A stretch of DNA of 35,130 nt. It comes from an uncultured Roseivirgaceae bacterium (GTDB lineage Bacteria; Bacteroidota; Bacteroidia; Cytophagales; Cyclobacteriaceae). The first letter of the stretch is position 1, and the number at the start of each line of letters is the position of its first letter. This document shows positions 1-32,997 of the stretch, piece by piece. A program made the translations under genes and the position numbers. The stretch is taken from assembly GCA_964643525.1 (NCBI GenBank), contig CAZXTW010000002.1, positions 3,300 through 38,429 of the forward strand, in the 5' to 3' direction. A model generated the notes under the pieces. The model made no database searches. It was not told the origin of the DNA and saw only the letters and a list, made by a program, of their open reading frames with translations.

Positions 1-45
1 GCCAAAATGAGCATGGATGATGTGAAATACAGTGCCGTGTATTGA
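1..45 (+). CDS. 3' end of an upstream CDS (partial, product unknown)
   Basis: The frame is open from the window edge (...AKMSMDDVKYSAVY*). Its TGA (43-45) overlaps the next ATG (45-47) in a TGATG junction, the same coupling seen at 5473-5477. Confidence 0.3.
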   Translation, partial: AKMSMDDVKYSAVY

Positions 46-1112
46 TGCAGTTGTTAGAAAACATACAGATTCTTGACTTTAGCCGCCTGCTGCCAGGCCC
101 CCTGGCCACTGACCTGCTACAACAGCTGGGGGCCAGCATCCATAAGGTAGAGCACCCGGTAAAAGGTGACTACACTAAACTACAGCCCCCCATGGTAAAT
201 GGAGAAAGTACGCTGTACACCGCCCTGAACGGCAATAAGCAGGTAAGCAAAATAGATTTCCTAATGCCTGAAGGGCTACAGCAGGTCAAAGCTCTGATTG
301 CAGAAGCAGATGTGGTGCTTGAGCAGTTCCGTCCTGGCGTAATGGCCCAATGGGGCCTGGGCTATGAGGCTGCCAAAGCGGTAAAAGAAGATATTATTTA
401 CATCTCGCTTAGTGGCTACGGCCAAAACGGCCCCTACGCCCAGAAGGCGGGGCATGACCTGAACTACCTGGCCCTTTCTGGCATACTGGGCCTCACTACC
501 GATGCCACCGGCCGCCCTACCCTGCCGGGTGTGCAGGTGGCTGATATTGGCAGCGGGGCCTACATGACGGTTAACGCCTGCCTGGCGGGCCTGTACCACC
601 GCCAGCGCACTGGCAAAGGCAGCTACCACGATGTATCAATGTTTGACGGGCTTCTGCCCCTGCTTACTATACCTGCCACCATGCACTGGGGTGGGGTAAA
701 CCCCAGCGAAGCCCGCTTTTTATCGGGTGCCCTGGTTAACTACAATGTGTACCAAACGGCCGATAAACAATGGGTAGCCCTGGCAGCCTTAGAAATGAAG
801 TTCTGGAATAACTTTTGCCAGTTAACCGGCCACCCCCAATGGCAGCGGCAGCACCAGTTAGAACTGGCTGTAACGGTGTTTCCGTTCCAGGAAGTAGAAG
901 TCCTGTTTGCCAGCAAATCGTTAGCAGAGTGGCTGACCCTGGCACAGCAGGCAGATATATGCCTCTCACCAATAAAGCAAGCACAAGAGGTTATGGACGA
1001 CCCTCACGTGGCTGCCAGAGAAAACATTGTGTTTGCACCCAATACTGGTCCCGATAAGCCCAGGCAGCCACAACGTTTTTGCTACCCTGTAAAAATGACC
1101 TTAAACAACTAA
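45..1112 (+). CDS. Family III CoA-transferase (CaiB/BaiF / alpha-methylacyl-CoA racemase-like)
   Basis: ORF 42..1112; I prefer the ATG at 45 because 42 is TTG. It shows family hallmarks by eye: N-terminal 'ILDFSRLLPGP', 'GHDLNYLALSG', 'QVADIGSGAY'. It is the first complete gene of a co-directional acyl-CoA operon. Confidence 0.8.
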   Translation: MQLLENIQILDFSRLLPGPLATDLLQQLGASIHKVEHPVKGDYTKLQPPMVNGESTLYTALNGNKQVSKIDFLMPEGLQQVKALIAEADVVLEQFRPGVMAQWGLGYEAAKAVKEDIIYISLSGYGQNGPYAQKAGHDLNYLALSGILGLTTDATGRPTLPGVQVADIGSGAYMTVNACLAGLYHRQRTGKGSYHDVSMFDGLLPLLTIPATMHWGGVNPSEARFLSGALVNYNVYQTADKQWVALAALEMKFWNNFCQLTGHPQWQRQHQLELAVTVFPFQEVEVLFASKSLAEWLTLAQQADICLSPIKQAQEVMDDPHVAARENIVFAPNTGPDKPRQPQRFCYPVKMTLNN

Positions 1113-1118
1113 CCTCCT

Positions 1119-1889
1119 ATGTTTCAGAAAGACCTGTTTAAAGACAAAGTTGTATTGGTAACTGGCGGCCGCAGCGGCATTGGCTACACCATTGCCGAGC
1201 AGTTTTTGCAATGTGGTGCCAAGGTATGGATAGCCAGCCGCAAAGAAGAGCCCCTGAATGAAGCTGCTGAAAAGCTAAGGCAGCTGGGGCCCGTCAGTGC
1301 CAAAGCCTGCAACATACGCGAAATTGAGGCCGTTGAAGCCCTGGCTGCGGCAGTTAAAGAAGAAGATGGCCGCCTGGATGTGCTCATTAATAATGCCGGT
1401 GGGCAGTTTCCGTCACGCGCGCAAGACATTAGCCTGAAAGGCTGGGAGGCAGTAATTAACAACAACCTGAATGGCACCTGGTACATGACCCAAACCTTTG
1501 GTAAGGAATTCTTTATACCACAAAAAGCAGGTAATGTGGTGAATATTATTGTCAACCTGTTCAGGGGGTTTCCAGGTATGGCACACACCGGGGCAGCCAG
1601 GGCCGGTATTGAAAACTTTACCAAATCATTGGCGGTAGAGTGGAGCCCCTATAATATCAGGCTCAACAACATTGCGCCGGGCATCATCCACTCTAGCGGC
1701 CTTGACCAGTACCCGCCTGAGCTACTCAAGGGCCTGAGCGACAACATACCCATGAAGCGGCTGGGCACTACCGCAGAGGTAGGCTGGCTGGCCCTGTTTC
1801 TGGCCAGTCCAATGGCGGGCTTCATCACGGGCGAATCTATTTATGTAGATGGCGGCCAGCGCCTGCATGGTGATACCTACAAATTATAA
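1119..1889 (+). CDS. Short-chain dehydrogenase/reductase, 2,4-dienoyl-CoA / trans-2-enoyl-CoA reductase (DECR/PECR)-like
   Basis: It has the Rossmann motif 'VTGGRSGIG' and 'NNAGG'. The active-site region 'MAHTGAARAGIENFTKSLAVEW' lacks the classical YxxxK, as in the DECR/PECR subgroup. It starts 7 nt after the upstream stop. Confidence 0.75.
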   Translation: MFQKDLFKDKVVLVTGGRSGIGYTIAEQFLQCGAKVWIASRKEEPLNEAAEKLRQLGPVSAKACNIREIEAVEALAAAVKEEDGRLDVLINNAGGQFPSRAQDISLKGWEAVINNNLNGTWYMTQTFGKEFFIPQKAGNVVNIIVNLFRGFPGMAHTGAARAGIENFTKSLAVEWSPYNIRLNNIAPGIIHSSGLDQYPPELLKGLSDNIPMKRLGTTAEVGWLALFLASPMAGFITGESIYVDGGQRLHGDTYKL

Positions 1890-1909
1890 CCCATAACCAA
1901 CGCATTGCC

Positions 1910-3748
1910 ATGGCAACAACCACAGCACCAGCCACAGAAAACGCTAGCAGCCAGCCCCAAAGCCACCCTAAGGGCGGTAACTTTTTGCTACAGGCCACCC
2001 CACCCAGTGCAGTGTTTACCATAGAAGAGCTTACTGAAGAACAGCGCCTGCTGCGCAACAGCGTGAATGACTTTATTGCCAAAGAAATTGAGCCCCGGTA
2101 TAAAGAAATTAACAGCCCGGCGGCCCATGCCCTATCACCAGGCCTGCTCGAAAAGGCCGGTGAGTTGGGCTTTCTTGCCGTAGGGGTGCCAGAGGCCTAT
2201 GGAGGGTATGACGTTGATTTTACCACACAGGTGGCCTTTGGCGAAAAGGCCTACTCGGCCTACCATTTTGGGCTAACCATAGGCGTGCAAACCAGCCTGG
2301 GGGTAGCCCCGCTGTTGTTTTATGGCAATGAGGCACAAAAAGCCAAGTACCTGCCTGCCATTGTTACAGCGCAGCTCAAGTCATGCTACTGCCTCACTGA
2401 ACCTGGGGCAGGCTCTGATGCCAACGCAGGCAAAACCAGGGCTACCCTGAATACGGCCGGCACCCACTACCTGCTAAACGGCCAGAAGATGTGGATTACC
2501 AACTCGGGCTTTGCCGATTTGTTTTTTGTGTTTGCCAAGGTTGATGATGACCCTAACCTTTCGTGCCTGATTGTTGAAAAAACCTTTGGAGGCATTACCG
2601 TAGGGGCTGAAGAGCATAAAATGGGTATTAACGGGTCAAGCACCCGGCAGGTGTTTTTTAATGATGTGCCTGTACCGGTAGGCAACCTGCTGGGTACTCG
2701 CAACAAAGGCTTTAAAATGGCTGTGAATGTGCTCAACACCGGCCGCATAAAAATGGGCGCATCAGTCACTTCAGTGGCCCGTAAGGTACTGAAACTGGCC
2801 ATTGACTACAGCAGCCAGCGCAAGCAGTTTGGCCAACCCATAGCTGCCTTTGGTGCCATGCAGCACAAGTTGGGCCATATGGCTGCCCGCCTGTATGCCA
2901 TGGAAAGCATGGTGTACCGCGCCGCCCATGATATTGATACGGTAAGCCACCAAATGATAGCACAGGGCAAAAACAGCCTGGAAGCCAAACCCGCCTCTAT
3001 TGCTGAGTTTGCCATTGAGTGCGCCATGATTAAGGTATACAATACCGAAGGGCTGGATATGATTGTAGATGAAACCCTGCAAATACACGGCGGCATGGGC
3101 TACAGCAAAGACACACGCATAGAGCAGTATTACCGCGACAGCCGCATTAACAGAATTTACGAGGGCACCAATGAGATCAACCGTATGCTGGCCGTTGACA
3201 TGCTGCTGCGCAAGGCCATGAAGGGCCAGCTAGACCTGATGGCCGCTGCCGCTGAGGTGAACCAGCAGGCCCAGGCAGGCACCCTGCATCACCCTGTAGA
3301 AGCTTCTAATGCCTCTGGCCCCTATGAACATGCCCATGCTGCCCTGGCAGGCTTTAAAAAGGCATGGTTACTTATTGCTGGCACGGTAGCGCAAAAGCTA
3401 CTACCCAACCTGAAAGACGAGCAGGAAGTACTGATGCATATGGCAGATATGGCCCTACAGATCTATGCCGTTGAATCGGCCACCCTACGCAGCCATAAGC
3501 ACCACCAGCCCGATGAGCGGCTTAGCAGCCTTCGCCAACAAATGGTAGTGCTGCTGTCGCATGAAGCCGCTACCAAACTTGTTGCCGCTGGCAAAGAGGT
3601 AGCTTATGTAGTGGCCGAAGGTCAGGCGGCAGAAAGCCTGATACAACAACTGCAACTGCTCACACACCTGCCCCCCTATAACCTGAAAAATGCCCGCCGT
3701 ACGTTGGCCCAGGCATTAACAGAAAAGGGGCAATACTTTTTTGATTAA
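1910..3748 (+). CDS. Acyl-CoA dehydrogenase, long form with C-terminal extension (VLCAD/FadE-like)
   Basis: 612 aa with ACAD motifs 'CLTEPGAGSDA', 'IHGGMGY', 'IYEGTNEINR', plus a C-terminal helical extension of about 170 aa. Confidence 0.85.
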   Translation: MATTTAPATENASSQPQSHPKGGNFLLQATPPSAVFTIEELTEEQRLLRNSVNDFIAKEIEPRYKEINSPAAHALSPGLLEKAGELGFLAVGVPEAYGGYDVDFTTQVAFGEKAYSAYHFGLTIGVQTSLGVAPLLFYGNEAQKAKYLPAIVTAQLKSCYCLTEPGAGSDANAGKTRATLNTAGTHYLLNGQKMWITNSGFADLFFVFAKVDDDPNLSCLIVEKTFGGITVGAEEHKMGINGSSTRQVFFNDVPVPVGNLLGTRNKGFKMAVNVLNTGRIKMGASVTSVARKVLKLAIDYSSQRKQFGQPIAAFGAMQHKLGHMAARLYAMESMVYRAAHDIDTVSHQMIAQGKNSLEAKPASIAEFAIECAMIKVYNTEGLDMIVDETLQIHGGMGYSKDTRIEQYYRDSRINRIYEGTNEINRMLAVDMLLRKAMKGQLDLMAAAAEVNQQAQAGTLHHPVEASNASGPYEHAHAALAGFKKAWLLIAGTVAQKLLPNLKDEQEVLMHMADMALQIYAVESATLRSHKHHQPDERLSSLRQQMVVLLSHEAATKLVAAGKEVAYVVAEGQAAESLIQQLQLLTHLPPYNLKNARRTLAQALTEKGQYFFD

Positions 3749-3750
3749 CC

Positions 3751-5475
3751 ATGGAGCCTACACAAACTTCTACAAACAGCCAAATGCCCCAGGTAAAATC
3801 ATTCTTAGAGTACTTTTACCATTGGGAGCAAACCACCCCGCAGGCCATTTACCTGCGGCAGCCCAAAGGCAGCACTTGGACTGACTACAGCTGGGCTGAA
3901 GTGGGCCAAATAGCCCGTACCATGGCCAGCGCCTTACAGCAAATGGGGCTGCCCCCTGGCAGCCATATTGGCATTGTATCAAAAAACTGCTGCCATTGGG
4001 TTATGGCCGACTTGGCCATTATGCTGGGTGGGTATGTTTCAGTACCCTTCTACCCCAACCTTACCGGCCCCCAGCTGGCTCAGGTTATTGATCATAGCGA
4101 CATTAAGGTGCTGTTTGTGGGTAAGCTTGAAAACTGGACAGATATGCGTGAGGGCGTGCCTGATGGCCTCGACATTATTCGTTTCCCACATTATGAAGGC
4201 AACAGTCAGGTTGCCGAAGGGAAGGACTGGAACGAGCTGCTGCAAAGCCGCCAGCCGCTGGCAGGCAACCCACTACCAGACCTGCACCAGTTATGGACCA
4301 TCTTGTATACCTCTGGCACTACGGGCACACCCAAGGGTGTAATGCACAGCTTCTATACCGCCTCGGCCTTATTAGAAAATGAACGACAGCACAATAACTT
4401 AAAACTGTTTGAAGGCGAGCATAACCGCTTTTTTTCTTACCTGCCCATGAACCATATTGCTGAGCGTGTTATTGTTGAAATCGCCAGCTTTTTTACGGGT
4501 GCCTCTATCTCATTTGGTGAAAATATAGACACTTTTGCCAGCAACCTGCAAGCCACCCAGCCCACCCTGTTTTTAGCAGTACCACGCATATGGACCAAGT
4601 TTCAAATGGCCATACTTGACCGGCTGCCGCAAAAACGCCTGAGCCTACTGCTCAAGTTACCCTTACTGTCGGGCCTGCTGAAACGAAAAATTGCCAAAGG
4701 CCTTGGGCTGAGCAAAGCCCGTATATTGCTTACCGGTGCCGCCCCTACCCCCCAGTCATTATCAGCATGGTATACCAGCCTTGGCTTGCAGTTACAAGAG
4801 GTATACGGTATGACCGAAAATTGTGGCGGCTGCACCCTGATGCGCAAAGAAAGCATCAGAACCGGCACGGTAGGGCAGCCCGTACCCAATTGTACTATTA
4901 GAATTGACCCCGAGACCCAAGAGGTGCAAACTCAAGCCCCATGGACTATGCTGGGGTATTACAAAGATCCTGATAAAACCGAACAGGTATTGAAAGACGG
5001 CTGGCTGCATTCAGCAGACCTAGGCGCGCTTGATGCCAACGGATTTTTAAAGATAACTGGCAGGCTAAATGACGTTTTTAAAACTGCCAAAGGCAAGTAC
5101 GTAGTACCCGGCCCCATTGAATGGGAGCTGGCTAAAAACACAGCACTTGAACAAATTTGTGTGGTAGGCCTGGGCATTGGTCAGCCCCTGGCTCTTGTGG
5201 TGCTATCAGAAGTAGGTAAAAGCCTGCCTGAAGCAGTGCTTAACAACACCCTACAGGCCACACTAACTACGGTAAACAACCAGTTGGCGCGCTTTCAAAA
5301 GGTAGCAGCCATTATTGTTGTGGCCGACCGTTGGGAGGTTGACACTGGTATATTAACCCCTACTATGAAGGTAAAACGCAATGTAATAGACCAACGCTAC
5401 AGCCATTTGTATACCAGCTGGTTTAATGCAGAGCAGCCAATAATTTATGCTGAACCACTAGCCAAACAGCCCTGA
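3751..5475 (+). CDS. AMP-dependent acyl-CoA synthetase (long-chain-fatty-acid--CoA ligase-like)
   Basis: AMP-binding signature 'ILYTSGTTGTPKGV', 'YGMTE', and C-terminal 'TPTMKVKR'. It starts 3 nt after the upstream stop. Confidence 0.85.
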   Translation: MEPTQTSTNSQMPQVKSFLEYFYHWEQTTPQAIYLRQPKGSTWTDYSWAEVGQIARTMASALQQMGLPPGSHIGIVSKNCCHWVMADLAIMLGGYVSVPFYPNLTGPQLAQVIDHSDIKVLFVGKLENWTDMREGVPDGLDIIRFPHYEGNSQVAEGKDWNELLQSRQPLAGNPLPDLHQLWTILYTSGTTGTPKGVMHSFYTASALLENERQHNNLKLFEGEHNRFFSYLPMNHIAERVIVEIASFFTGASISFGENIDTFASNLQATQPTLFLAVPRIWTKFQMAILDRLPQKRLSLLLKLPLLSGLLKRKIAKGLGLSKARILLTGAAPTPQSLSAWYTSLGLQLQEVYGMTENCGGCTLMRKESIRTGTVGQPVPNCTIRIDPETQEVQTQAPWTMLGYYKDPDKTEQVLKDGWLHSADLGALDANGFLKITGRLNDVFKTAKGKYVVPGPIEWELAKNTALEQICVVGLGIGQPLALVVLSEVGKSLPEAVLNNTLQATLTTVNNQLARFQKVAAIIVVADRWEVDTGILTPTMKVKRNVIDQRYSHLYTSWFNAEQPIIYAEPLAKQP

Positions 5476-6659
5476 TGCATATGAGTGATTATTACTTTAC
5501 TGAACAACATCAAACCTTTAGGCAAAGCTTGCGCAGCTTTTTGCAAAAAGAGGTAATACCCCACATAGATCAATGGGAAGCTGATGGTGAACTGCCTCGC
5601 TCAATCTGGAAGCAGTTTGGTGATATGGGCTGCTTTGGCCTGAACTACCCTGAGGCTTACGGTGGGCTGGGTTTAGACTTTTTTTATGTGACCGTTATGC
5701 TTGAAGAGCTGTGCCGCTGTAACTCAGGGGGTTTTGCTGCTTCTATTATGGCGCACCCCTTATTGGCTCTGGCCCATATCAATGCCAGCGGCAGCGAGGC
5801 ACTAAAACAAAAGTACCTGACACGCGGTATTGCTGGCGACTTGTTTGGCTGCCTGGCCGTGACCGAGCCCGGCGGTGGTTCTGATGTGGCCGCCATACAA
5901 ACTAAAGCCATTCAAACAAGCCAAAACTACATCGTGAATGGGTCAAAAACATTTATTACCAATGGTGTGCTGAGTGATTTTCTGGTGGTGGCCGTCCGCA
6001 CTGATCCGAATAGTACCGGGGCAGCAGGGCTTAGCCTGTTGGTGATAGACCGCGACAGCCCCGGACTCACGGCCACTAAACTTAAAAAGCTGGGTTGGCA
6101 TGCCTCAGACACAGGTGAGATTAGCTTAGATCATGTAGAAGTACCTACCACTAACCTACTTGGCGAAGTTGGGATGGGCTTTTACTACATCATGCAACGT
6201 TTTGCTCTTGAGCGGCTGGTCATGGCAGTATCGGCCATAGGCAGCTGCGAGTACGCCCTGGAGTACGCCCTTGACTACATGGGGCAAAGACCCGCCTTTG
6301 GTAGGCCATTAACACGCTTTCAAGAATTGCGCCACCGCATAGCTCAACTTACTACTGAAGTTGAGCGTGCCCGCTATTTTAACTACCATTTATGTGCCCT
6401 GTACCAACAAGGCACTAAAATTACAGAACAGGCAGCCATGGCCAAGCTCATGGCCACTGAGCTTGCCGATACCGTAACCTATCAATGCATTCAGTTTTTG
6501 GGTGGCTATGGGTATATGGAAGAATACCAGGCCGCGCGCATGTGGCGAGATGCCCGCATAGGCACCATTGGTGGTGGCTCATCTGAAATTATGAAAGAAA
6601 TCATTGCAAAAACAACAATAGACCGGGCGGTATACCGTGCACCGGTTACCACTGATTAA
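5475..6659 (+). CDS. Acyl-CoA dehydrogenase (LCAD/IVD-like)
   Basis: Motifs 'AVTEPGGGSDVAA', 'FLGGYGYMEEY' and 'IGGGSSEIM', with a candidate helix-G catalytic Glu in 'FALERL'. Its start overlaps the upstream stop (TGATG). Confidence 0.85.
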   Translation: MHMSDYYFTEQHQTFRQSLRSFLQKEVIPHIDQWEADGELPRSIWKQFGDMGCFGLNYPEAYGGLGLDFFYVTVMLEELCRCNSGGFAASIMAHPLLALAHINASGSEALKQKYLTRGIAGDLFGCLAVTEPGGGSDVAAIQTKAIQTSQNYIVNGSKTFITNGVLSDFLVVAVRTDPNSTGAAGLSLLVIDRDSPGLTATKLKKLGWHASDTGEISLDHVEVPTTNLLGEVGMGFYYIMQRFALERLVMAVSAIGSCEYALEYALDYMGQRPAFGRPLTRFQELRHRIAQLTTEVERARYFNYHLCALYQQGTKITEQAAMAKLMATELADTVTYQCIQFLGGYGYMEEYQAARMWRDARIGTIGGGSSEIMKEIIAKTTIDRAVYRAPVTTD

Positions 6660-6663
6660 CACT

Positions 6664-8223
6664 ATGCAAAACACTATTTATAGCAACTATTTTACTGAAG
6701 AGCATAATCTGTTTAGGCAAGGGCTGCGTGACTTTCTGGACAAAGAAGTGACACCCAATATTGACCAATGGGAGGCTGACGAGCGCATACCCAAAAACCT
6801 TTGGGCTAAATTTGGCAGCCTGGGTTACCTGGGCTTGAATTATCCTGAACAGTATGGCGGTGCCAATGCAGATTTTTTCTTTAGCGTTGTATTTCTTGAA
6901 GAAACTGCCCGGTGCTTTTCTGGCGGGTTTTCTATCACGCCCAGCGTGCAGCAATACATGGCCTCGCCATACCTGTATAAATACGGATCTGACTTCCTGA
7001 AAGAAAAATACCTGACAGGTGCCATTAGTGGTGAAAAGATATGCTCAATTGCCATATCTGAGCCTGGAGCAGGCTCTGACGCAGCCAACATCCAAACCAG
7101 GGCCATCCGCGATGGAGATCATTATGTTGTGAATGGTTCAAAAACATTCATAACCAATGGCTATTATGGTGATTTTTTAATTACTGTAGTAAAAACCAAC
7201 CCTGAGGCCGGTTCGGCCGGGGTGAGCCTGTTGGTAATTGACCGCAATGCAGAAGGCGTTAGTGCCAGAAAGCTTAAAAAGTTAGGGTGGCATGCCTCTG
7301 ACACGGCCGAACTCAATTTTGACGATGTAAAAGTACCCGTTGAAAACTTAATAGGTGAAGAGGGTAACGGCTTTTACTACTTAATGGGAGGTTTACAAAC
7401 CGAAAGACTAGCCGGGGCCATTAGCGCAGTTGCAGCTGCTGACCACGCCCTACAGTATGCCCTGCAGTATATGGCCGAGCGGCAAGCCTTTGGCAGGCCT
7501 ATTAATAAGTTTCAGGTACTGAGGCACAGGGTAGCTCAATTGGCGGCCGAGATTGAGTCAACACGTGCTTTTGTGTATCATTGCGCCAGGCTGCATAACG
7601 ACAATCAGTATGCGGTAAAAGAATGCTCAATGGCCAAGCTGCTGGCTACTGAGCTATCAGATAAAACCATGTATCAGTGCCTGCAGTTCTTTGGTGGATA
7701 TGGGTATATGGAAGAGTACAAAATAGCACGGATGTTTAGAGACAGCCGCGTTGGTACAATAGGCGGTGGCAGCTCGGAGATTATGCGAGAAATCATTGCC
7801 AAAATGGTCATTGATGATCAGAACTATCAACAAGCTGGCCCTAAAAAAGCCAGTAGGCATACAAATGGGCAACAACCAGAATTAACTGACGAAGTACCAT
7901 CAAAACCGATTAAATACAATAATCTCATGAGTTTAGAAGCAACCACTGAAGCCCTCAAAAAAAGGGCTGATGAAGCAGCCCCTTTAAACAACACCATAAA
8001 GTTTGTTATGGGTGAAGGGGTAATCATTATTGACGGAAACAATGGAAGCAACCAAGTAAGCAATGATGAGCTTGAAGCAGACTGTACCGTAAACCTTGAA
8101 AAAGCTGACTTAGATGCCATGCTAAGTGGTGAACTTGCCCCGATGAATGCATTCATGGCTGGTAAGTTAAAAGTTAGTGGTGACATGAGCGTTGCCATGA
8201 AACTACAAAGCATTGTGGGCTAG
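6664..8223 (+). CDS. Acyl-CoA dehydrogenase fused to a C-terminal SCP2 sterol/lipid-carrier domain
   Basis: The track ORF is 6637..8223. I prefer the ATG at 6664 (MQNTIYSNYF...), which aligns with the start of the upstream paralog and avoids a 23-nt overlap. The ACAD core has 'AISEPGAGSDAAN', 'FFGGYGYMEEY', 'IGGGSSEIM'. After a low-complexity linker, the last ~100 aa ('...IKFVMGEGVIIIDG...LDAMLSGELAPMNAFMAGKLKVSGDMSVAMKLQ') read as SCP2. Confidence 0.8.
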   Translation: MQNTIYSNYFTEEHNLFRQGLRDFLDKEVTPNIDQWEADERIPKNLWAKFGSLGYLGLNYPEQYGGANADFFFSVVFLEETARCFSGGFSITPSVQQYMASPYLYKYGSDFLKEKYLTGAISGEKICSIAISEPGAGSDAANIQTRAIRDGDHYVVNGSKTFITNGYYGDFLITVVKTNPEAGSAGVSLLVIDRNAEGVSARKLKKLGWHASDTAELNFDDVKVPVENLIGEEGNGFYYLMGGLQTERLAGAISAVAAADHALQYALQYMAERQAFGRPINKFQVLRHRVAQLAAEIESTRAFVYHCARLHNDNQYAVKECSMAKLLATELSDKTMYQCLQFFGGYGYMEEYKIARMFRDSRVGTIGGGSSEIMREIIAKMVIDDQNYQQAGPKKASRHTNGQQPELTDEVPSKPIKYNNLMSLEATTEALKKRADEAAPLNNTIKFVMGEGVIIIDGNNGSNQVSNDELEADCTVNLEKADLDAMLSGELAPMNAFMAGKLKVSGDMSVAMKLQSIVG

Positions 8224-8258
8224 ACTAAGGTAAATACCCCATTTGGCACTCAAAAAAA

Positions 8259-8285
8259 GCCACTGGAAACCCAGTGGCTTTTTTT
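8259..8285 (+). terminator. Rho-independent terminator of the acyl-CoA operon (A-tract upstream makes it potentially bidirectional)
   Basis: A perfect 8-bp stem GCCACTGG (8259-8266) / CCAGTGGC (8271-8278) with loop AAAC, followed by T7 and preceded by A7. Confidence 0.8.
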
Positions 8286-8949
8286 AATATCTAGCTATTG
8301 GCACTCATGCCCAAGATCACTTAGCCTAATAGTAAAGCAAAGCCTTACTTTTGAATACAAACCACCGAAATAACAGGTTTATAAATGCATAAAATCGAAG
8401 CATCAGAGCGTACCGCACTTGTTTAGATATAATTTATTCTATTTTTTTCTTGAGCCAATTTTTGTTCACTTCTCAGAATAAAAGCTCACCAGCCTATTTC
8501 ACCTTTATTTAAGATCTTATTTCATAGCATAAAAAATTGTCATATGTAATTATATTATTACATTGCGTAATATTAACATACACATGTTATTACTTATAAG
8601 TGACATCTTACTAAAGTAAAGCACTACACCATTCATTTATGAGGTAAGAATTAAGAGGAATAAAATTGAGGCTCTGCAAACAGAAACTGTAGTGTTTAGC
8701 CATTTGCATATCCTGTAGTTTTAGCACTTGCTCAACTCACCACAAAATATATGCATATAATTCAAACAATAATTGCAAACCTAAATAACATATTCATAAA
8801 TCAAATAACTAAACATTGCTCAATATTTAGCCGCTGGTATATATCCCATTAAACTTCAATAAAAGCCGTTTAAAGTCTATAACCATAACTAACCTAGTAT
8901 TATAAATTAATAATTCTCTATATCCATTTAAACGTAAACTTCAATTCTT
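8286..8949. other. ORF-free, strongly AT-rich intergenic spacer
   Basis: No track ORF lies on either strand. My own scan finds only ORFs of 33 aa or less. Hand counts give 19/60 G+C for 8401-8460 and 11/60 for 8521-8580. Confidence 0.7.
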
Positions 8950-9108
8950 ATGAAAAAGCAACGTGTATTTCCGACATTCAATGCACTAAGTGCAATTCAA
9001 CAAAGTAAACTACGCGGCGGATGCCCTGATTGTGATACAGGCCCAGAAGCGCCAAACCCGCCTAATGATCCACCTACTACTGGTACGGATGATCCACCTA
9101 ATCAGTAA
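8950..9108 (+). CDS. Small unannotated ORF (52 aa): putative double-glycine-leader peptide precursor
   Basis: My translation is MKKQRVFPTFNALSAIQQSKLRGG|CPDCDTGPEAPNPPNDPPTTGTDDPPNQ*. 'LSAIQQSKLRGG' fits the LSxxELxxIxGG double-glycine leader pattern. Local G+C (34/60 for 9001-9060) stands out from the AT-rich surroundings. It is below the 60-aa ORF-track cutoff. Confidence 0.55.
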   Translation: MKKQRVFPTFNALSAIQQSKLRGGCPDCDTGPEAPNPPNDPPTTGTDDPPNQ

Positions 9109-9210
9109 GATGTAAGCAAACCAATCAATATAGTGTTAGAATAATATTTTAATAACAGCAAGTCGGTATTATTGATATCTTTGTTAATGTAACATGATAG
9201 TTTACAGTAT

Positions 9211-10476
9211 ATGAAGAATCTTACACCTATTTACTTGCTGTTATTTTTTCTCGTTGCTTGTCAAAAACATCCATCAAGAAATATAAACCCTGCACAAGAT
9301 GTTTTAAACCTTCTAGAAGCATCTAAATCACAGCTTACCCAAACTGATTCAGCTCTTAATTTAATAATTAAGGCACAAGAAATAGCCCATAAGCATGGGC
9401 TAACTCAATATAGGGCTAGCATCCTTAACCAAAAAGGGCGTGTATATGTAGAAAAAAACCTATTGCTAGAGGCGCTTGAATGCCATTTATCAGTCATTAT
9501 GTCTACACAAAAAGCCAATGAGGTGGCCTATGCCAACCACCAATTAGGCGTATTGTATACAAGAATGAAACAATATGACAGGGCAATTAACCACTTGCAG
9601 GGTGCCTTGAAGTATTACACAAAAGCCAATAAAAATAACTGGCTGGTATTAAGCCACTTTCGGTTAGGTAAAGCTTATTTACTTAAGCAAGAATTCCCTC
9701 AAGCAGAAAACAGCTTTCAAGCTTCATTGCGGTATGCAGAAAAGTCTGGTTATGACCTTATGATTCAGTATAACTTAGATAGGCTGGCTGAAGTGTGTAG
9801 TACAACCGGCAGGTTTATTGAAGCAAAATCGTATATAAAAGCCATGCGAGAACGCTTTCAGTTAGAAAACCCTCCTGCATTGATAAGCTACCTTTTACTG
9901 TTGGGCAATACCGCAGAAGAGCTGGCACAACCAAAAGAAGCCGCACAATACTACGACCAGGCGGCCGCCGTTATTCGGCAACACCCTGATAACCATCTGT
10001 ATCTCTACGGCATGTATACTTATGGCAACTATCTGCAAAGGCACCAGAAAGATGGCATTACCATTTGGAAAGAAGCATTGAACAATTATCAGGTTGATGA
10101 ATCTAAATACACTGCTGAGCTAGTTGCTCTCTCACAAGCCTTGGGTAATTGGTATATGAATAGACAGCAGCTGCATGATGCAGCCCCATTCATTCAACTC
10201 TCCAATCGCCTACAGAGTGAACGAGTAGCCTTACTCTCTAATATGGAAACCCAATACAACCTGGCGCAGATAGAACAAGTGCAAAAGCAAGTAGCAGCGC
10301 AATATGCTCCATCACCTTCATTTTGGCAAAATTATGGTATGTATATAGTTGTGGCTATTTTAATACTATACGGTATAGTTTTATCAGTAGCCTACCGTAA
10401 CAGATATGTTAAGCTACAGACTTACAGAAAGTTGGTAATGCAGCTCATCAAACCTCATGTTGAAGAAGGTAGATAA
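9211..10476 (+). CDS. TPR-repeat lipoprotein/membrane protein with a single C-terminal TM helix (sensor-like, no output domain)
   Basis: It has a lipoprotein-type signal 'LLLFFLVAC' and multiple TPR-like helical repeats (e.g. 'YANHQLGVLYTRMKQYDRAINHLQGALKYY'). The C-terminal TM helix is 'YGMYIVVAILILYGIVLSVAY', followed by a 27-aa tail. A candidate Bacteroidetes -7 box, TATCTTTG, lies at 9176-9183. Confidence 0.7.
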   Translation: MKNLTPIYLLLFFLVACQKHPSRNINPAQDVLNLLEASKSQLTQTDSALNLIIKAQEIAHKHGLTQYRASILNQKGRVYVEKNLLLEALECHLSVIMSTQKANEVAYANHQLGVLYTRMKQYDRAINHLQGALKYYTKANKNNWLVLSHFRLGKAYLLKQEFPQAENSFQASLRYAEKSGYDLMIQYNLDRLAEVCSTTGRFIEAKSYIKAMRERFQLENPPALISYLLLLGNTAEELAQPKEAAQYYDQAAAVIRQHPDNHLYLYGMYTYGNYLQRHQKDGITIWKEALNNYQVDESKYTAELVALSQALGNWYMNRQQLHDAAPFIQLSNRLQSERVALLSNMETQYNLAQIEQVQKQVAAQYAPSPSFWQNYGMYIVVAILILYGIVLSVAYRNRYVKLQTYRKLVMQLIKPHVEEGR

Positions 10477-10481
10477 TTTAC

Positions 10482-11150
10482 CTATTCCTCATTAAATGCT
10501 TCAATACCATTTATGATTATAGGGCTTGGGTGTATACCTTTTGCTAGTTGAGCATCGTCTACTGGCGGGAGCATAGTAACTTGAAATGGAATTACACCAG
10601 CCCATACATTTAATTCGTAATCAGCTGCATCGTCAGATGGGTGCCCGGTGCGTTCTTTTGCTGAGGCATGTTCAATATCAATAGCCACTACCAGAGTAGC
10701 CTTCATTTCGGCCTCATTTGGCTGCCGTACCTCGTCCCACCTGCCTTGAAACACATTGTCACTAATTGCCCTTACAGCATTATACTTTTCCTGGCCCTCA
10801 TTAACAATGCGTGTTGCACCAAATACAGCTACCGAGCGGTAATTCATAGAATGGTGAAAAATAGACCGGGCCATAACCAAGCCGTCAGTATGTGTAACTG
10901 TTAAACTACCCTGGCCGGCCTCTACCAAGCTTGTAAGCATACGGTTTTTCAACGCACCGTGTAAATAAACAGTTTCTTCAATACGCCCATAAGCAGTAGG
11001 TATTATCACGGCCTGCCCCCGCCAAACATAGCCAACATGACAAAGAAAATGAGTGTCTAATATTGTAAAAACCTTTTGCTTATCATAACTACCTCGGTTT
11101 GGCGCGCGTTTAACCCGGTTTAAATCAGTTACATTAAATGACTGTTCCAT
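10482..11150 (-). CDS. Pyridoxamine 5'-phosphate oxidase-family (FMN-binding split-barrel) protein
   Basis: The track ORF is 10482..11180; I prefer the ATG at 11150 (MEQSFNVTDLNRVKRAPNRGSYD...). The N-terminal 'RxxxRGxYD' motif and overall size are typical of PNPOx-like flavin-binding proteins. It is divergent from a MocR regulator. Confidence 0.65.
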   Translation of the reverse strand: MEQSFNVTDLNRVKRAPNRGSYDKQKVFTILDTHFLCHVGYVWRGQAVIIPTAYGRIEETVYLHGALKNRMLTSLVEAGQGSLTVTHTDGLVMARSIFHHSMNYRSVAVFGATRIVNEGQEKYNAVRAISDNVFQGRWDEVRQPNEAEMKATLVVAIDIEHASAKERTGHPSDDAADYELNVWAGVIPFQVTMLPPVDDAQLAKGIHPSPIIINGIEAFNEE

Positions 11151-11261
11151 ATTTGAAATCTTTAATGCAAATAAATACATTTACAGGACTACCTAAAGCA
11201 GCCAGTTTTATTAAACTCAGTAGTCCGGTTACGACTTGGCTAACCCTCAGAACCACACAAA

Positions 11262-12749
11262 ATGTTACCCTTTGGCACCTTAATTCAAATTGACCGGGCC
11301 AACAAACAGCCCTTGTTTATGCAAATTGTAAATGCTGTAATTAGGCAGGTACAAACGGGCAACCTACCACCAGGTACGCAATTGCCGGGTACCCGCCAAT
11401 TGGCTGTGTTGTTACAGGTGCATCGTAAAACTGTGGTAACTGCTTATGATGAGTTATATGCTCAGGGGTGGCTAGAATGCCAACCCTCAAAAGGTACGTA
11501 TGTATCAACACAGTTACCTACTGTAGATAAAAAGGTGCTAAAGCCAGCCAAACAGTATGGCTCAATAAACCGAGCCTCTTTTCTTATAAATGACTTACCT
11601 GAGCTTGATCAGCCTCTTTATAAAGATGCCAACCAGCTACAAATTGATGATGGTATTCCAGATGTACGCCTGGCTCCTACTGAAGAATTGGCCCGCACCT
11701 ACCGATCAGTGCTTAAAACTGCCTCATCAAAACAATTGCTAAACTATGGCGAGCTTCACGGTCATCCAGTACTACGCCGGGAATTGGCCACCTACTTAAA
11801 TAGCACTAGGGGCTTAAGCATTACTGATGAGAACATAATGATTACTAGAGGCAGCCAAATGGGTATATTTCTTTGTGCTCAATTATTACTCAAAAATGGG
11901 CAGGCCGTTGCCGTAGGCAACACAAATTACATTGCTACAGATATTACGTTTCAACATGCAGGCGCTAGCCTGTTGCGAATTGAAGTAGATGAACATGGCC
12001 TTAATACTAAAGCGCTAGAACAAGTATGCGCAAAAAATAGACCAAAGGCTGTTTATGTAACGCCCCACCACCATCACCCTACAACCGTAACCTTAAGCGC
12101 CGAACGCAGACTTCATTTGCTTGAACTGGCGCGAAAGTATGGGTTTGCAATTATAGAAGATGACTATGACTTTGACTTCCATTACGGCAGAGGCCCCATT
12201 TTACCTCTAGCAAGTGCCGACCAGCAAGGGCATGTATTATACATTGGTTCTTTATGCAAACTAATTGCACCAGCTTTGCGCGTTGGTTATCTGGTGGCCC
12301 CAAAGAATGTAATTCACAAAGCAGCTATGTTAAGGCGAATTATTGACAGACAGGGCGACCACATTCTCGAATTAGCTTTGGCAAGAATGTTTAAAGAAGA
12401 CGCCATTCAACACCATACCAGAAAGGTTTTAAAAGTGTATAAAGAACGTCGTGACCTGTTTGTTCAATTAATTGACAATATTGGTAGCCAAAAAATACAG
12501 TTTAATATACCAAAGGGTGGCATGGCCCTTTGGGCACAATTTAACCAGCGCTACCCATTACCAGATGTGGCTAAAAGGGCCGCGCAAAAAGGGGTAATTA
12601 TGGCCGATGGAACGAGGTATGACTCGATGGGTAAAGGTTTGAATGCGTTGCGAATGGGCTTTGCTTCAATCAATAGGCAAGAAGCCACGCAAATTACTCA
12701 GGTGCTAAAGAGTGTACTAGACGAGATGGCGGGTAAGAAGACTATATAA
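11262..12749 (+). CDS. MocR/PdxR-type regulator (GntR wHTH fused to fold-type I aminotransferase-like domain)
   Basis: The N-terminal GntR HTH reads 'LPGTRQLAVLLQVHRKTVVTAYDELYAQGWL'. The C-terminal aminotransferase-like domain carries a candidate PLP lysine in 'IGSLCKLIAPALRVGY'. Confidence 0.85.
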   Translation: MLPFGTLIQIDRANKQPLFMQIVNAVIRQVQTGNLPPGTQLPGTRQLAVLLQVHRKTVVTAYDELYAQGWLECQPSKGTYVSTQLPTVDKKVLKPAKQYGSINRASFLINDLPELDQPLYKDANQLQIDDGIPDVRLAPTEELARTYRSVLKTASSKQLLNYGELHGHPVLRRELATYLNSTRGLSITDENIMITRGSQMGIFLCAQLLLKNGQAVAVGNTNYIATDITFQHAGASLLRIEVDEHGLNTKALEQVCAKNRPKAVYVTPHHHHPTTVTLSAERRLHLLELARKYGFAIIEDDYDFDFHYGRGPILPLASADQQGHVLYIGSLCKLIAPALRVGYLVAPKNVIHKAAMLRRIIDRQGDHILELALARMFKEDAIQHHTRKVLKVYKERRDLFVQLIDNIGSQKIQFNIPKGGMALWAQFNQRYPLPDVAKRAAQKGVIMADGTRYDSMGKGLNALRMGFASINRQEATQITQVLKSVLDEMAGKKTI

Positions 12750-15182: not shown

Positions 15183-16304
15183 GTGTCTAAACCATTTCCT
15201 ATATCATTCAAAACTATATTGCCCGCCAGGTCGGTATCACATTTAATATTCTGGGCGGGTTATTACCTGGTTATAGTTTTTGTACTGGCCAATAGGCTTC
15301 AAACCGCACTGGCCCTATGGTATGGCTTTTTACTCATCTCACCTCAAATCATTATAGCCTACATCAACATGCAATGGCTGGTACCTCAGTACTTCATGCA
15401 AAAGCGGTTTCTTCATTTTGCGGTATCAGTAATAGTCTTATTTACACTATTATACTTTACTTATGAGGCTATTGGCCTTAACAGGCCCTTTCTATACAGC
15501 AGAGCTGACTTCAGAGAGTTTAGAGAATTAAAAGAGTTTGGGGGGGGCAACTTTGGCCCCAGGCGTGGCATTCCTTTTGGCGGCAACTTTCCCAGGCCTC
15601 CCCATTTCATCAAATCGGCTGTAAACCTCATGCTTACCCTCGGTGTGTTTCTACTTTCAACAGCTTATAAAGCCTCGCTTATAGCAATGAACAACGAGAA
15701 AGAAGCACAACGGCTAAAAAGTGAAGGCCTAGAGTCAGAACTACGTTTTTTAAAGTCGCAAATAAACCCGCACTTCCTGTTTAATGCACTCAATAATGTG
15801 TATAGCCTGTCTCTCATCCAATCTGAAAAAACACCAGATACCATCCTAAAGCTGTCTGAAATGCTCAGGTACATTTTGTATGACTGCAATCAGGAAAAAG
15901 TACCCCTCAACAAAGAACTAGCCTTTATTCGTAATTACGTTGACTTGATGAAACTCAAAGACGACCAGATACAAAACATTAAACTAACCTTACCCATAGT
16001 TTCAAGTAGCGATATGATTGAACCTATGCTATTTGTACCTTTTGTTGAAAATGCCTTTAAACACAGCAAAATTGAAGACCTTGTTAACGGCTGGATCAAT
16101 ATTGAACTCACCCTTTCAAACCGGCAACTCATTTTTACAATTAAAAACAGTGTGCCAGAACTCAGCTATACAAAAGACAGCGTTGGTGGCATTGGACTGG
16201 AAAATGTGCGCCGCCGGTTGCAGCTACTCTACCCGCAAAGGCATGAGCTATTCATTGACAAAACAGAACAGCAGTTTACAGCACAACTAAGCATACTACT
16301 ATGA
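15183..16304 (+). CDS. LytS/YehU-family sensor histidine kinase
   Basis: It has a GTG start and N-terminal TM helices. The His_kinase (PF06580-type) motif is 'LKSQINPHFLFNALNNVYSL' and the ATPase region is 'VPFVENAFKHS...GIGLENVRRRL'. Its stop overlaps the response-regulator start (ATGA at 16301-16304). Confidence 0.85.
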   Translation: MSKPFPISFKTILPARSVSHLIFWAGYYLVIVFVLANRLQTALALWYGFLLISPQIIIAYINMQWLVPQYFMQKRFLHFAVSVIVLFTLLYFTYEAIGLNRPFLYSRADFREFRELKEFGGGNFGPRRGIPFGGNFPRPPHFIKSAVNLMLTLGVFLLSTAYKASLIAMNNEKEAQRLKSEGLESELRFLKSQINPHFLFNALNNVYSLSLIQSEKTPDTILKLSEMLRYILYDCNQEKVPLNKELAFIRNYVDLMKLKDDQIQNIKLTLPIVSSSDMIEPMLFVPFVENAFKHSKIEDLVNGWINIELTLSNRQLIFTIKNSVPELSYTKDSVGGIGLENVRRRLQLLYPQRHELFIDKTEQQFTAQLSILL

Positions 16305-17041
16305 GTAAAATAAACTGCCTTATTGTTGACGACGAGCAGCTGGCCCGTACACTGCTAGAAAACTTTGTTGCTAAAGTACCAGTATTAGAGGTAGCAGGAC
16401 TTTGTAAAAACCCGTTAGAAGCACTAGGTATCTTGCAGCAGCAACCTGTTGAATTGATTTACCTTGATATACAAATGCCAGAACTCACGGGTACTGAATT
16501 TTTGAAAACATTACCTCAGACACCCAAAGTCATTTTTACTACTGCCTATCCTGACTATGCCCTTGAAGGGTATACACTCAATGCCATTGACTACCTTTTG
16601 AAGCCTTTCTCTTTCGAGCGATTCATTCAGGCTACCAATAAAGCAATTGGCCTGGTTCAGCTTGAACGGGCAGCCAGTTTAAATTCAAATGCAGTCCCGC
16701 AGGCAAATACAGTTAACAAGCAATCCAACCCCTACATCACCCTAAAAGCCGACCACAAAATGCATAAGGTTTGGCTAAAAGACATACTCTACATAGAAGG
16801 CATGAAAGAGTATGTGGCATTCCACCTACCCAACCAGCGAATTATAGTGTTAGAATCGCTCAAAAACCTGGAGGCTTCGTTACCAAATGGCCAGTTCATG
16901 CGCATTCATAAATCATTTATTGTGAATACGCTAAAAATTGAAATGTTAGAAGGCAACCTGGTTTATCTCGCAGGTAAGCAATTACCCATTGGTAAAAGCT
17001 ATCGTGAGGTAGTTCTAAAAAGTATTTTCGGAAAAGAATAA
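16301..17041 (+). CDS. LytTR-family response regulator
   Basis: The REC domain reads 'CLIVDDEQLAR...LIYLDIQMPELTG...LLKPF'. The C-terminal LytTR domain reads 'ILYIEGMKEYVAFH...MRIHKSFIVN'. Confidence 0.9.
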   Translation: MSKINCLIVDDEQLARTLLENFVAKVPVLEVAGLCKNPLEALGILQQQPVELIYLDIQMPELTGTEFLKTLPQTPKVIFTTAYPDYALEGYTLNAIDYLLKPFSFERFIQATNKAIGLVQLERAASLNSNAVPQANTVNKQSNPYITLKADHKMHKVWLKDILYIEGMKEYVAFHLPNQRIIVLESLKNLEASLPNGQFMRIHKSFIVNTLKIEMLEGNLVYLAGKQLPIGKSYREVVLKSIFGKE

Positions 17042-17253
17042 GGCCCCATAGGTACCTGACCTGCTTAGAACAAATCGCATTTTTAATCTATCTTTGAGTT
17101 TATCATTTTATTTATAACAAATTGTTAACTATTTGTAAGGCCTTTCTCTCAATAAAAACTTATCTATCAGCTTATTAAAAAAATAATCAATAGCAAGAGA
17201 TATCAAATTGAGGAGTGCCAACAGTGATTTAACAAAGCAGAAAATTAAAACCA

Positions 17254-17544
17254 ATGGTCGTCAGGATATTTAAAGCCACCGTAAAACCTGAACTTAAAAA
17301 AGATTTTGAAAACTTTTTTCGCTATGAGGCCATTCCATATATGCAGGTGCAAGAAGGAATAGTAAATGTAGTAACCGGAAAGCCAATTTCTCAGAATGAC
17401 AACGACTTTGTAATGGTTACTACCTGGGAAAACATAGACGCTGTAAGGAAATTTATGGATAACGAATGGAACAAAGATAAGCTGGTACGAGACGAAATGA
17501 ATATGTTAGAAAATACCCGAATTGAGCACTTTGAAGTGATCTAA
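17254..17544 (+). CDS. Small ABM/Dabb-fold (antibiotic biosynthesis monooxygenase-like) protein
   Basis: It is 96 aa with a ferredoxin-like beta-alpha-beta pattern ('VRIFKATVKPE...FVMVTTWENIDAVRKF'). The assignment rests on size and pattern only. Confidence 0.5.
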   Translation: MVVRIFKATVKPELKKDFENFFRYEAIPYMQVQEGIVNVVTGKPISQNDNDFVMVTTWENIDAVRKFMDNEWNKDKLVRDEMNMLENTRIEHFEVI

Positions 17545-17566
17545 CCCTACTAATACTTCAAACCAA

Positions 17567-18340
17567 TTAACTTTTAGCTCTAAATTGCCTGTCTATTACA
17601 ATTAGCCCATCAAGCGTTAGCATAGGCATAATGGCATCAAAATAATCAGAAAGGCCAGCCATTGTATGTGCCAGGCCACCCGTAGCCAGCTTCATTGCCG
17701 GCTGCCCAATTTCAGCTTCTGTTTTGCTTACCAATGCCTTTACCAGCCCTTCGTAACCTAATAAAATTCCAGCCTGCATGGCGTGAATTGTATTCTTACC
17801 TAAAACTGAAGTGGGTACTTTAAGGGGTATTTCAGGTAGCTTGGCCGTATTACCAGCAAGGGCTTTCATGGCTGTTTGAATGCCTGGCGCAATGGCCACA
17901 CCTAATATGTGGCCTTCAGCACCCACGGTAGTTACCGTCAAAGCAGTGCCAAAATCAACCACAAGACAGGTAGCCTTAAAATGGTCATAAGCTGCAGAGG
18001 CATTTGCTACCAGGTCAGCGCCCATCTCAGCAGGGTTATTTACATGAATAGCTAAGCGACCATACAATGAGGGGCCCACCATCAAAGGTTTTGTGCCCAG
18101 CAGCCTTTCAAGCGCCGCCTGTACTATAGGCGTCAAGGCGGGTACTACACTACACAACACGCTCCGTTTGATCTCATTCAAATGTATGTCGTGCTCTAGA
18201 AAAAAATCACGAATGTGCATCTCCACATCCCTTGGCTCATAGCTTTGATTACTCTCCAACCTAAAACTGTATACCCATTGCCCTTCAAGCCATAGCCCTA
18301 CGACAACATTTGAATTCCCAATATCTATAGCCAGTAACAT
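17567..18340 (-). CDS. coaX: Type III pantothenate kinase
   Basis: It has the ASKHA phosphate motifs 'LLAIDIGNSNVVVG' and 'LVVDFGTALTV', at 257 aa. Confidence 0.9.
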   Translation of the reverse strand: MLLAIDIGNSNVVVGLWLEGQWVYSFRLESNQSYEPRDVEMHIRDFFLEHDIHLNEIKRSVLCSVVPALTPIVQAALERLLGTKPLMVGPSLYGRLAIHVNNPAEMGADLVANASAAYDHFKATCLVVDFGTALTVTTVGAEGHILGVAIAPGIQTAMKALAGNTAKLPEIPLKVPTSVLGKNTIHAMQAGILLGYEGLVKALVSKTEAEIGQPAMKLATGGLAHTMAGLSDYFDAIMPMLTLDGLIVIDRQFRAKS

Positions 18341-18463
18341 AAGTACTTGTTTTAATTACAGCTAAGGTAAGCGTAAAAACAATGAAACATAGCCCATTTT
18401 ATGGCCAATTTTATTATCATTATTGATCAATAGCAGGGGCCTGATTTTAATTAATGGCCTACC

Positions 18464-20653: not shown

Positions 20654-20874
20654 CTACATTAGCAACATCATAAACAGTCGTTAAAAATGTGAAAGCCTGA
20701 ACATCTGGTATAAAAATCTTTATTAAAGCTTACTTTACATACCATAAGTTTTTCTCTACAATTCAAGTTGGGTCATAGGCCATATTATCCTACTTATCGA
20801 AACTACCCATAAGTAATTCAAGGATTAGCCTGATTCTTTATAAAAAAAGTCGTTAAAATTAATATTTTAGTCTT

Positions 20875-21351: not shown

Positions 21352-21376
21352 ACGTATCATCAATTAACAAGCGGGT

Positions 21377-32991: not shown

Positions 32992-32997
32992 AAAACC

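Follow-up and report, generated by a model that had tools for sequence, protein, structure and literature searches.

The question raised by this locus is whether a short open reading frame (ORF) at the 3' end of an AT-rich gap is a gene and, if it is, whether its product is a peptide exported by way of a double-glycine (GG) leader. The ORF, of 52 codons, lies in a 35,130-nucleotide stretch of contig CAZXTW010000002.1 from an uncultured Roseivirgaceae bacterium, a stretch referred to here as the window, and its product is MKKQRVFPTFNALSAIQQSKLRGGCPDCDTGPEAPNPPNDPPTTGTDDPPNQ. An earlier reading of the same DNA, made from the letters and without database searches (the sequence-only reading), had proposed such a leader peptide, and its translation of the plus strand at 8950-9108 is an exact match to this product. 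Our analyses establish that the ORF is a genuine small gene under protein-level purifying selection, and that the peptide gene, the adjoining gene for a tetratricopeptide-repeat (TPR) protein and flanking conserved non-coding blocks constitute a two-gene module in two diverged Bacteroidota lineages. Judged on the features of the peptide, it is plausible that the small gene works most like a double-glycine leader peptide, yet we do not file it as a member of that class because a consensus position and all curated models fail.

A small gene under protein-level selection

The small ORF comes at the end of a 726-nt spacer (8224-8949; G+C 30%) that follows an acyl-CoA dehydrogenase-SCP2 gene (6637-8223). 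The G+C content of its core codons is 52% and that of the 102 nt past its stop (9109-9210) is 25%; the local count that had drawn attention to the ORF, 34/60 (56.7%) across 9001-9060, was right. The small gene is also called on four metagenome contigs (L001-L004), which represent the same strain with 1 nt difference in 1 kb and therefore carry no evolutionary information. The informative comparison comes from the TPR neighbor, which has one diverged homologue (P0003, 62% identical) on a 2.2-kb Joint Genome Institute (JGI) metagenome contig, L005. Directly upstream of P0003, in the same orientation and with the same spacing, L005 carries a called 51-aa gene (615-770) whose product, MKKQRVLPALNALSKMHQMKLTGGCPNCDTGPEAPNPPPDMPEDDEDPPTL, shares 65% amino-acid identity with the window peptide. 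Synonymous sites are saturated between the two lineages, as indicated by the proportion of synonymous differences in the TPR gene (pS 0.82) and by the ~40-47% identity at which unconstrained intergenic DNA aligns. Across codons 1-38, the two small ORFs share 78% of their nucleotides, with differences at codon positions 1, 2 and 3 numbering 5, 3 and 17, respectively (binomial p=4e-4). Within the 14 codons of CPxCDTGPEAPNPP, seven differences are synonymous and a single one is a replacement, D to N (pS 0.70; proportion of non-synonymous differences, pN, 0.03; codon positions 1/0/7), and the small gene overall has a dN/dS of ~0.23. It is this third-position bias, together with the synonymous excess in the core against a saturated background, that places the reading frame under protein-level selection. 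The proposal of the sequence-only reading that a selected coding sequence is present thus holds, supported by the third-position-biased differences and by a homologue in the same position on L005; in this only diverged relative, the ORF is neither absent, frameshifted nor unconstrained, and it still lies beside the TPR gene.

It could be argued that the ORF arose by chance in the AT-rich spacer and that its conservation reflects DNA-level elements only. Its length is indeed unremarkable, as 761 of 2000 shuffles of 8224-9210 (38%) yielded an ATG-initiated ORF of at least 52 codons, and the adjoining non-coding blocks are strongly conserved too. The evidence beyond chance is provided by the diverged homologue and its third-position-biased substitutions, not by ORF length: the concentration at third positions (17 of 25 differences, and 7 of 8 in the core) and a frame that stays open in L005, with the same start and a near-equal length despite synonymous saturation, make a chance ORF most improbable, and the overlapping ORF in an alternative frame is not kept in the same form in L005.

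The residues shared by the two homologues are M1-V6, P8, N11-S14 (NALS), Q18, K20 (position -5 relative to the Gly-Gly site), L21 (-4) and G23-G24, followed by the CPxCDTGPEAPNPP block, whereas the last 13 residues are the most variable part of the peptide. The whole core is 27-28 aa long across the two homologues and in each contains 6-8 Asp plus Glu residues, 9 Pro and no Lys or Arg.

The peptide family is tiny and lineage-restricted, with two members among ~15 billion predicted proteins. A word-index search of 5.8 billion clusters returned only a 98%-identical variant of the peptide from the same strain, and a full phmmer search of 1.84 billion representatives had no hits beyond the L005 peptide and a single false positive of low complexity. 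The peptide alignment matched nothing in a metagenome scan, and no match came from a degenerate DNA pattern search, in a collection that apparently lacks the L005 contig, as L005 fits the pattern yet was not returned. A genome scan with the TPR alignment gave no match, and single-sequence and profile searches with the TPR protein revealed no further homologues. When both peptides were compared by tblastn with 80 Saprospiraceae/Bacteroidota loci, located through their counterpart of the upstream acyl-CoA dehydrogenase gene, no homologue was detected, nor were GG-leader peptides found in the retrieved loci, where they were sought as a local training set. The upstream acyl-CoA dehydrogenase itself is at most 73% identical to its counterparts in Saprospiraceae, Lewinellaceae and Chitinophagales metagenome-assembled genomes. 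No species genome in GTDB thus comes close, and by this comparison the organism would be placed as a Saprospiraceae-like member of the Bacteroidota that is not represented there. The sample identifiers lead to marine-biofilm metagenome studies (PMC6355793, PMC10689801).

A conserved two-gene module with shared non-coding elements

The sequence-only reading had described the ORF as sitting alone and as an orphan precursor. The first description is not borne out, since the TPR gene 102 nt downstream is co-conserved, and the second understates the context, since the peptide and TPR genes together make up a conserved module that shares operator-like repeats. What lies upstream of the module in L005 bears no relation to the acyl-CoA dehydrogenase gene of the window, and L005 retains both genes as well as the spacer elements (Table 1). 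The most upstream conserved block is surrounded by DNA that is 38-47% identical to L005, and the block abutting the peptide start codon continues into six start-proximal codons without synonymous change. The block that ends at the TPR start includes a perfect Bacteroidota-type -7 box, TATCTTTG, at 9176-9183, 28 nt before the TPR start codon, and its TAnnTTTG motif is conserved in L005. TAnnTTTG is the Bacteroidota sigma-A consensus. Because this box lies in the conserved spacer, the TPR gene probably has its own promoter; no -7 box of the TAnnTTTG type was found directly upstream of the peptide gene. Inverted repeats of the form TGTAA-N8/9-TTACA occur three times in the window (the two sites in Table 1 and 24357-24374) against 0.18 expected, and twice in L005 (211-228 and 850-868) against 0.01 expected, statistics that are indicative only, as the pattern was defined after two sites had been seen. 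Both module repeats are conserved in L005, their arms invariant and their spacers variable, and their form suggests a shared operator of one dimeric regulator.

Table 1. Positions in the window of the peptide and TPR module and of its conserved elements
Feature	Coordinates	Strand	Remarks
Small gene	8950..9108	+	ATG to TAA, 52 codons plus TAA stop
Putative 24-aa double-glycine-type leader, MKKQRVFPTFNALSAIQQSKLRGG	8950..9021	+	L-12, S-11, L-4 and GG fit the consensus; -8 and -7 do not
Invariant core block, CP(D/N)CDTGPEAPNPP	9022..9063	+	7 synonymous and 1 non-synonymous differences
Variable acidic, proline-rich C-terminal tail	9064..9105	+	44% nt identity; composition kept, sequence not
Conserved non-coding block with TGTAAT-N6-ATTACA (8545-8562)	8535..8572	.	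87% identical to L005; ~405 nt upstream of the peptide start
Conserved block abutting the peptide start codon, AATTCTCTATATCCATTTWAACRTAAA	8911..8949	+	77% identity to L005
Conserved block between peptide stop and TPR start	9149..9210	+	92% identity to L005; -7 box and inverted repeat TGTAA-N9-TTACA (9188-9206)
421-aa TPR protein	9211..10476	+	Pfam TPR_12 and related families match

The arrangement also brings to mind a cis-acting upstream ORF, the proline-rich translation of which (NPP, DPP, PPN) would stall ribosomes and tune TPR expression, with no function in trans. The placement of the small ORF 5' of a co-oriented TPR gene, the lack of an intervening terminator, the several Pro-Pro motifs of the ORF and the conservation of the spacer before the TPR gene would all suit such a role. 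On the other hand, the best-conserved residues (GG-CPxCDTGPEA) are central in the peptide, the 13 C-terminal residues, through which stalling would operate, vary most, the spacer shows neither significant RNA structure (z = -0.4) nor an Rfam family, and the TPR gene probably uses its own promoter, so that we see only a slim chance for a purely cis-acting role.

A putative double-glycine leader

The peptide begins with MKK, and conservation climbs sharply right after the Gly-Gly that would end the 24-aa leader. The claim that this segment fits a double-glycine leader stands as far as the invariant Leu-12, Ser-11, Leu-4 and Gly-Gly are concerned, and fails at consensus positions -8/-7 and in matching no profile hidden Markov model (HMM). 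The pockets of the C39 peptidase domain take leader positions -4, -7 and -12, the -7 pocket being hydrophobic, and the ComA/LahT consensus leader has Glu-8 and Leu-7 (PMC6363468); hydrophobic residues are present at -4 and -12, being Leu in both homologues. As also claimed, the N-terminus lacks a hydrophobic signal core: the best 9-residue Kyte-Doolittle mean is 0.98 for the window peptide, compared with 3.26 for the true signal peptide of the neighboring TPR lipoprotein, and the range across both homologues is 0.98-1.48, that is, with no Sec-type core. A reading of the N-terminus as a Sec signal was dropped for this reason.

Several points weigh against the double-glycine reading. Position -8 is Gln in the window peptide and His in the L005 peptide, and position -7 is Gln in both, as opposed to the Glu and Leu of the consensus. 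The HMM check of the leader was negative, as the window peptide matched no Pfam or NCBIfam family at E<=10, and the L005 peptide had no relevant NCBIfam match at E<=1. The AlphaFold2 (AF2) model of the 52-aa peptide is disordered and uninformative, and it shows no leader helix. The statement that the window holds no exporter or maturase was correct for its 25 plausible genes (non-nested ORFs of at least 120 aa), as no C39/ABC transporter, type I secretion HlyD, radical-SAM, SPASM, ATP-grasp, LanM or YcaO gene was found in the 35 kb; the sole HlyD-like protein of the window belongs to an AcrB-OEP-TetR efflux set. With two lineages only, "invariant" describes one pairwise comparison, and the link between the peptide and the TPR protein is one of guilt by association, the fold matches of the latter being generic. 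Some of this has limited bearing: Bacteroidetes GG precursors are hyperdiverse, with just 8 of 87 clusters of precursors recognised by curated models in a single survey, and C39 peptidases are often encoded away from the GG precursor (PMC8939145). Because curated models miss most Bacteroidetes GG precursors, the negative HMM result is weak evidence.

The same observations could be read as those of an unprocessed cytoplasmic small protein, in which the Gly-Gly is incidental and the CPxC is a zinc-knuckle-like or redox motif used for dimerization around a metal or for partner binding. Consistent with this are the lack of an exporter in the window and of a GG-leader HMM match, the non-hydrophobic residue at -7, the conservation of the first six codons and the core as a unit, and the fact that the only weak NCBIfam match (E=0.014, well short of the cut-off) involved the zinc ribbon of Nop10, in its CPxC region. 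However, a single CxxC is unable on its own to make a Zn(Cys)4 site, and the remainder of the peptide is disordered and rich in Pro and Asp. Moreover, L-12, S-11, L-4 and GG followed by a jump in conservation is the pattern of a leader/core junction, and a cytoplasmic peptide could touch only the 26-aa tail of its partner, whose TPR domain is predicted to be periplasmic. A cytoplasmic role therefore appears unlikely to us.

A third possibility concerns the Cys that directly follows Gly-Gly. Were signal peptidase II to cut before Cys25, with lipidation to follow, the product would be an atypical small lipoprotein; the invariance of this Cys straight after G-G, the acidic residues next to it and the fact that a genuine small lipoprotein ORF, acidic in its tail, occupies an analogous position (30359-30565) lend themselves to this idea. 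The lipobox rule, [LVI][ASTVI][GAS]C, excludes charges just upstream of the Cys. Here, position -3 is Arg in the window and Thr in L005, Lys occupies -5 in both, within the would-be h/c-region, and the maximal hydropathy falls well below that of the neighboring lipoprotein signal (0.98-1.48 versus 3.26), which leaves this option very slim odds.

Finally, the peptide might be the precursor of a peptide made on ribosomes and modified after translation (RiPP), with a GG-type leader and a CPDCDT core cross-linked by a distant maturase, e.g. by radical-SAM/SPASM thioether formation between Cys and Asp, Asn or Thr. This thioether chemistry is that of the SPASM enzymes encoded in Bacteroidetes GG-precursor loci (PMC8939145), and the invariant C-P-(D/N)-C-D-T would place Cys donors beside Asp, Asn and Thr acceptors in a peptide that also has the MKK start and the GG motif. 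Against it, maturases normally adjoin their precursors, whereas no radical-SAM, SPASM, ATP-grasp, LanM or YcaO gene is encoded within 35 kb; TIGR04149 and PF14406 do not match, and the conserved neighbor is a TPR protein and not an enzyme. A RiPP precursor thus seems improbable. A lanthipeptide reading was dropped on the features of the peptide, and the window has no LanM.

The partner TPR protein

The TPR protein has a lipobox, LVAC (TVAC in L005), with the Cys at position 17, followed by ~8 TPR-like helical hairpins, a coiled-coil, a C-terminal transmembrane (TM) helix and a 26-aa tail; the lipobox Cys, TM helix and tail are kept in P0003. Its AF2 model, built from a two-sequence alignment (mean pLDDT 73.7), contains helices only, one of which spans 371-418. 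The lipobox and the positive-inside rule lead us to infer that the TPR domain faces the periplasm, in which case only an exported peptide could meet it. The basic C-terminal tail, RYxKLxTYRKLVMQLIKPHV (10339-10473 and the L005 equivalent), is conserved above most of the TPR domain, which suggests that the 26-aa segment has a dedicated binding partner in the cytoplasm. In sequence, the TPR protein is weakly related to TPR sensor kinases and phosphatases, one of them the TPR histidine kinase of the window, which it matches over the N-terminal part of the kinase (E=5e-5). The structural matches of the TPR protein in the PDB are generic, peptide-binding TPR superhelices (LGN/Pins, Rap, NprR) at TM-scores of ~0.4, among which LGN and designed consensus TPRs score equal or better.

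Comparison with known systems

Peptide signaling and peptide antimicrobials offer several systems with which the module can be compared. Like class II bacteriocins and ComC/BlpC-type pheromones, which are processed by peptidase-containing ABC transporters (PCAT/AMS), the peptide combines a short leader that has no hydrophobic core, ends in Gly-Gly and carries Leu at -4 and -12 and Ser at -11 with a small core. It differs from them in having Gln (or His) and Gln at -8 and -7 and no match to the family HMMs, in the absence of an adjoining transporter, immunity or kinase gene, and in a proline-rich core that is not amphipathic and has a negative net charge (-6 to -8). Leaders of this class are 15-30 aa long, lack a Sec-type hydrophobic core and end in Gly-Gly, Gly-Ala or Gly-Ser. 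Bacteroidetes GG RiPP precursors (TIGR04149/TIGR04139/PF14406; ATP-grasp branch 5 and SPASM loci, PMC8939145) share with it the Bacteroidota origin, the MKK start, the GG, a core that has Cys with Asp and Thr, and hyperdivergence, but here no SPASM, radical-SAM, ATP-grasp, PCAT or HlyD gene is present within 35 kb and the neighbor encodes a TPR membrane protein. Bacteroidetocins (class IIf) are likewise Bacteroidota peptides with a GG-cleaved leader and Cys residues able to form a disulfide. However, they have 15-16-aa leaders and basic, hydrophobic cores of 42-48 aa with at least two and in most cases four Cys, and their four-gene cluster encodes the peptide, a 5-TM protein, a thiol oxidoreductase and a PCAT (PMC6671954). 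The 24-aa leader, the acidic core of 27-28 aa without Lys or Arg and the absence of the cluster genes from the window do not fit a bacteroidetocin.

There is a parallel in gene arrangement with RRNPP pairs (Rap/Phr, NprR/NprX, PlcR/PapR), in which a small pro-peptide gene adjoins a TPR gene, an adjacency kept here in two lineages; Rap and NprR, whose TPR groove is the site of peptide binding, are among the structural neighbors of the TPR model, although this similarity is generic. RRNPP receptors are cytoplasmic proteins of Firmicutes with helix-turn-helix or phosphatase outputs, and their pro-peptides have Sec signals and are re-imported. In the module described here, on the other hand, the TPR domain would be periplasmic, held between a lipid anchor and a TM helix, only TPR Pfam families match, with no output domain, and the peptide has no Sec signal.

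A possible route from pre-peptide to partner

Whether the product is an exported GG-type pre-peptide with a mature form starting at Cys25 is, in our estimation, an evenly balanced call, which draws on the leader-like features of the sequence. Under this reading, the 52-aa product would be a pre-peptide whose 24-aa N-terminus serves as a double-glycine-type leader, and a C39-peptidase ABC exporter (PCAT) encoded elsewhere in the genome would cut after G23-G24. A soluble, disordered and strongly anionic 28-aa peptide beginning with Cys would thereby be released, in which the CPxC pair, as a disulfide or a metal site, would adjoin the invariant DTGPEAPNPP. The released peptide may bind, as ligand or partner, the TPR membrane protein encoded next to it, which would face the periplasm, or it may have another signaling or binding role. 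A ligand or binding role is more likely than that of a membrane-damaging bacteriocin because the core is non-amphipathic, anionic and devoid of positive charge, the reverse of what is seen in class II bacteriocins and bacteroidetocins, the cores of which are cationic and amphipathic. One dimeric regulator may control the module, with one repeat far upstream of the peptide gene and the other between the TPR -7 box and the start codon. Coding status, co-conservation and the conserved non-coding elements are direct observations in the two lineages; cleavage, export and the TPR interaction are steps that we infer.

In its fullest form, the exported pre-peptide would take part in outward-facing peptide sensing, whereby the GG-leader peptide is bound by the periplasmic TPR superhelix, the signal passes via the 26-aa cytoplasmic tail and a palindrome-binding regulator autoregulates the module, with a 68-aa lipoprotein ORF and a TPR kinase elsewhere in the window as a second instance. 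This scheme as a whole is speculative and, we think, rather unlikely. The recurring layout of a small acidic, Cys-first exported peptide upstream of a periplasmic-TPR membrane protein (n=2) weakly backs the idea of a ligand or partner.

The 68-aa ORF (30359-30565, plus strand) has a classical lipoprotein signal, MFKKFRAALFAVALLVSTAGLAS|C (...GLASC), and its acidic tail is rich in Gly and Pro (...GEAPGLPEQ...GPDTGEDDIE). About 215 nt separate it from the downstream gene for a TPR histidine kinase (30781-32991), which is followed by a LytTR regulator gene (32998-33804); the ORF is called as a gene on same-strain contigs. No significant homology was found between the 52-aa peptide and the product of the 68-aa ORF.

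Other features of the window

Upstream of the spacer, the region 42-8223 encodes on one strand a CoA-transferase III, a short-chain dehydrogenase/reductase (SDR), a 612-aa acyl-CoA dehydrogenase, an AMP-binding ligase, a second acyl-CoA dehydrogenase and the acyl-CoA dehydrogenase-SCP2 fusion, the last of which has a GTG start and a 23-nt overlap with the previous gene. After this gene, a perfect hairpin at 8252-8285, AGCCACTGG-AAAC-CCAGTGGCT, lies between an A-run and a T-run and looks like a bidirectional intrinsic terminator; it was seen by eye, the terminator scan did not list it, and its Rfam matches (BTnc231, Thr/Phe leader) are weak and sub-threshold. On the other side of the module, 10482-12749 holds a divergent pair made of a Pyridox_ox_2 (pyridoxamine-phosphate-oxidase-like) gene and a gene for a MocR-type GntR-aminotransferase regulator; the Pyridox_ox_2 gene is convergent to the TPR gene in L005 too. 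A gene near the small ORF encodes a type IX secretion system (T9SS) C-terminal sorting domain, which fits Bacteroidota. The regions 15183-22516 and 30781-33804 are unusually rich in sensory genes, encoding a His_kinase (PF06580) and a LytTR protein, a 729-aa AraC-type protein, a stand-alone receiver, a receiver-histidine kinase hybrid, and a TPR-HisKA_2 kinase with a LytTR protein. A TetR, OEP, membrane fusion protein (MFP) and AcrB efflux set is located at 22.5-30 kb.

Implications

If only the conservative part of these results holds, the locus adds one more lineage-restricted small gene, of value mainly for small-ORF annotation in uncultured marine-biofilm bacteria. If the export of a GG-type peptide is confirmed, it would add a peptide family invisible to current models, with an atypically anionic, proline-rich core containing a CxxC, and it would pair the GG-type peptide with a sensor-like TPR membrane protein of the periplasm, in place of a transporter, an immunity gene or a maturase. 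Outward-facing sensing, if true, would represent an extracytoplasmic analogue of RRNPP signaling. To our knowledge, the ligands of the TPR-TM sensor proteins that are very common in Bacteroidota are essentially unknown, and the genetically paired peptide would provide a testable candidate ligand for one of them.

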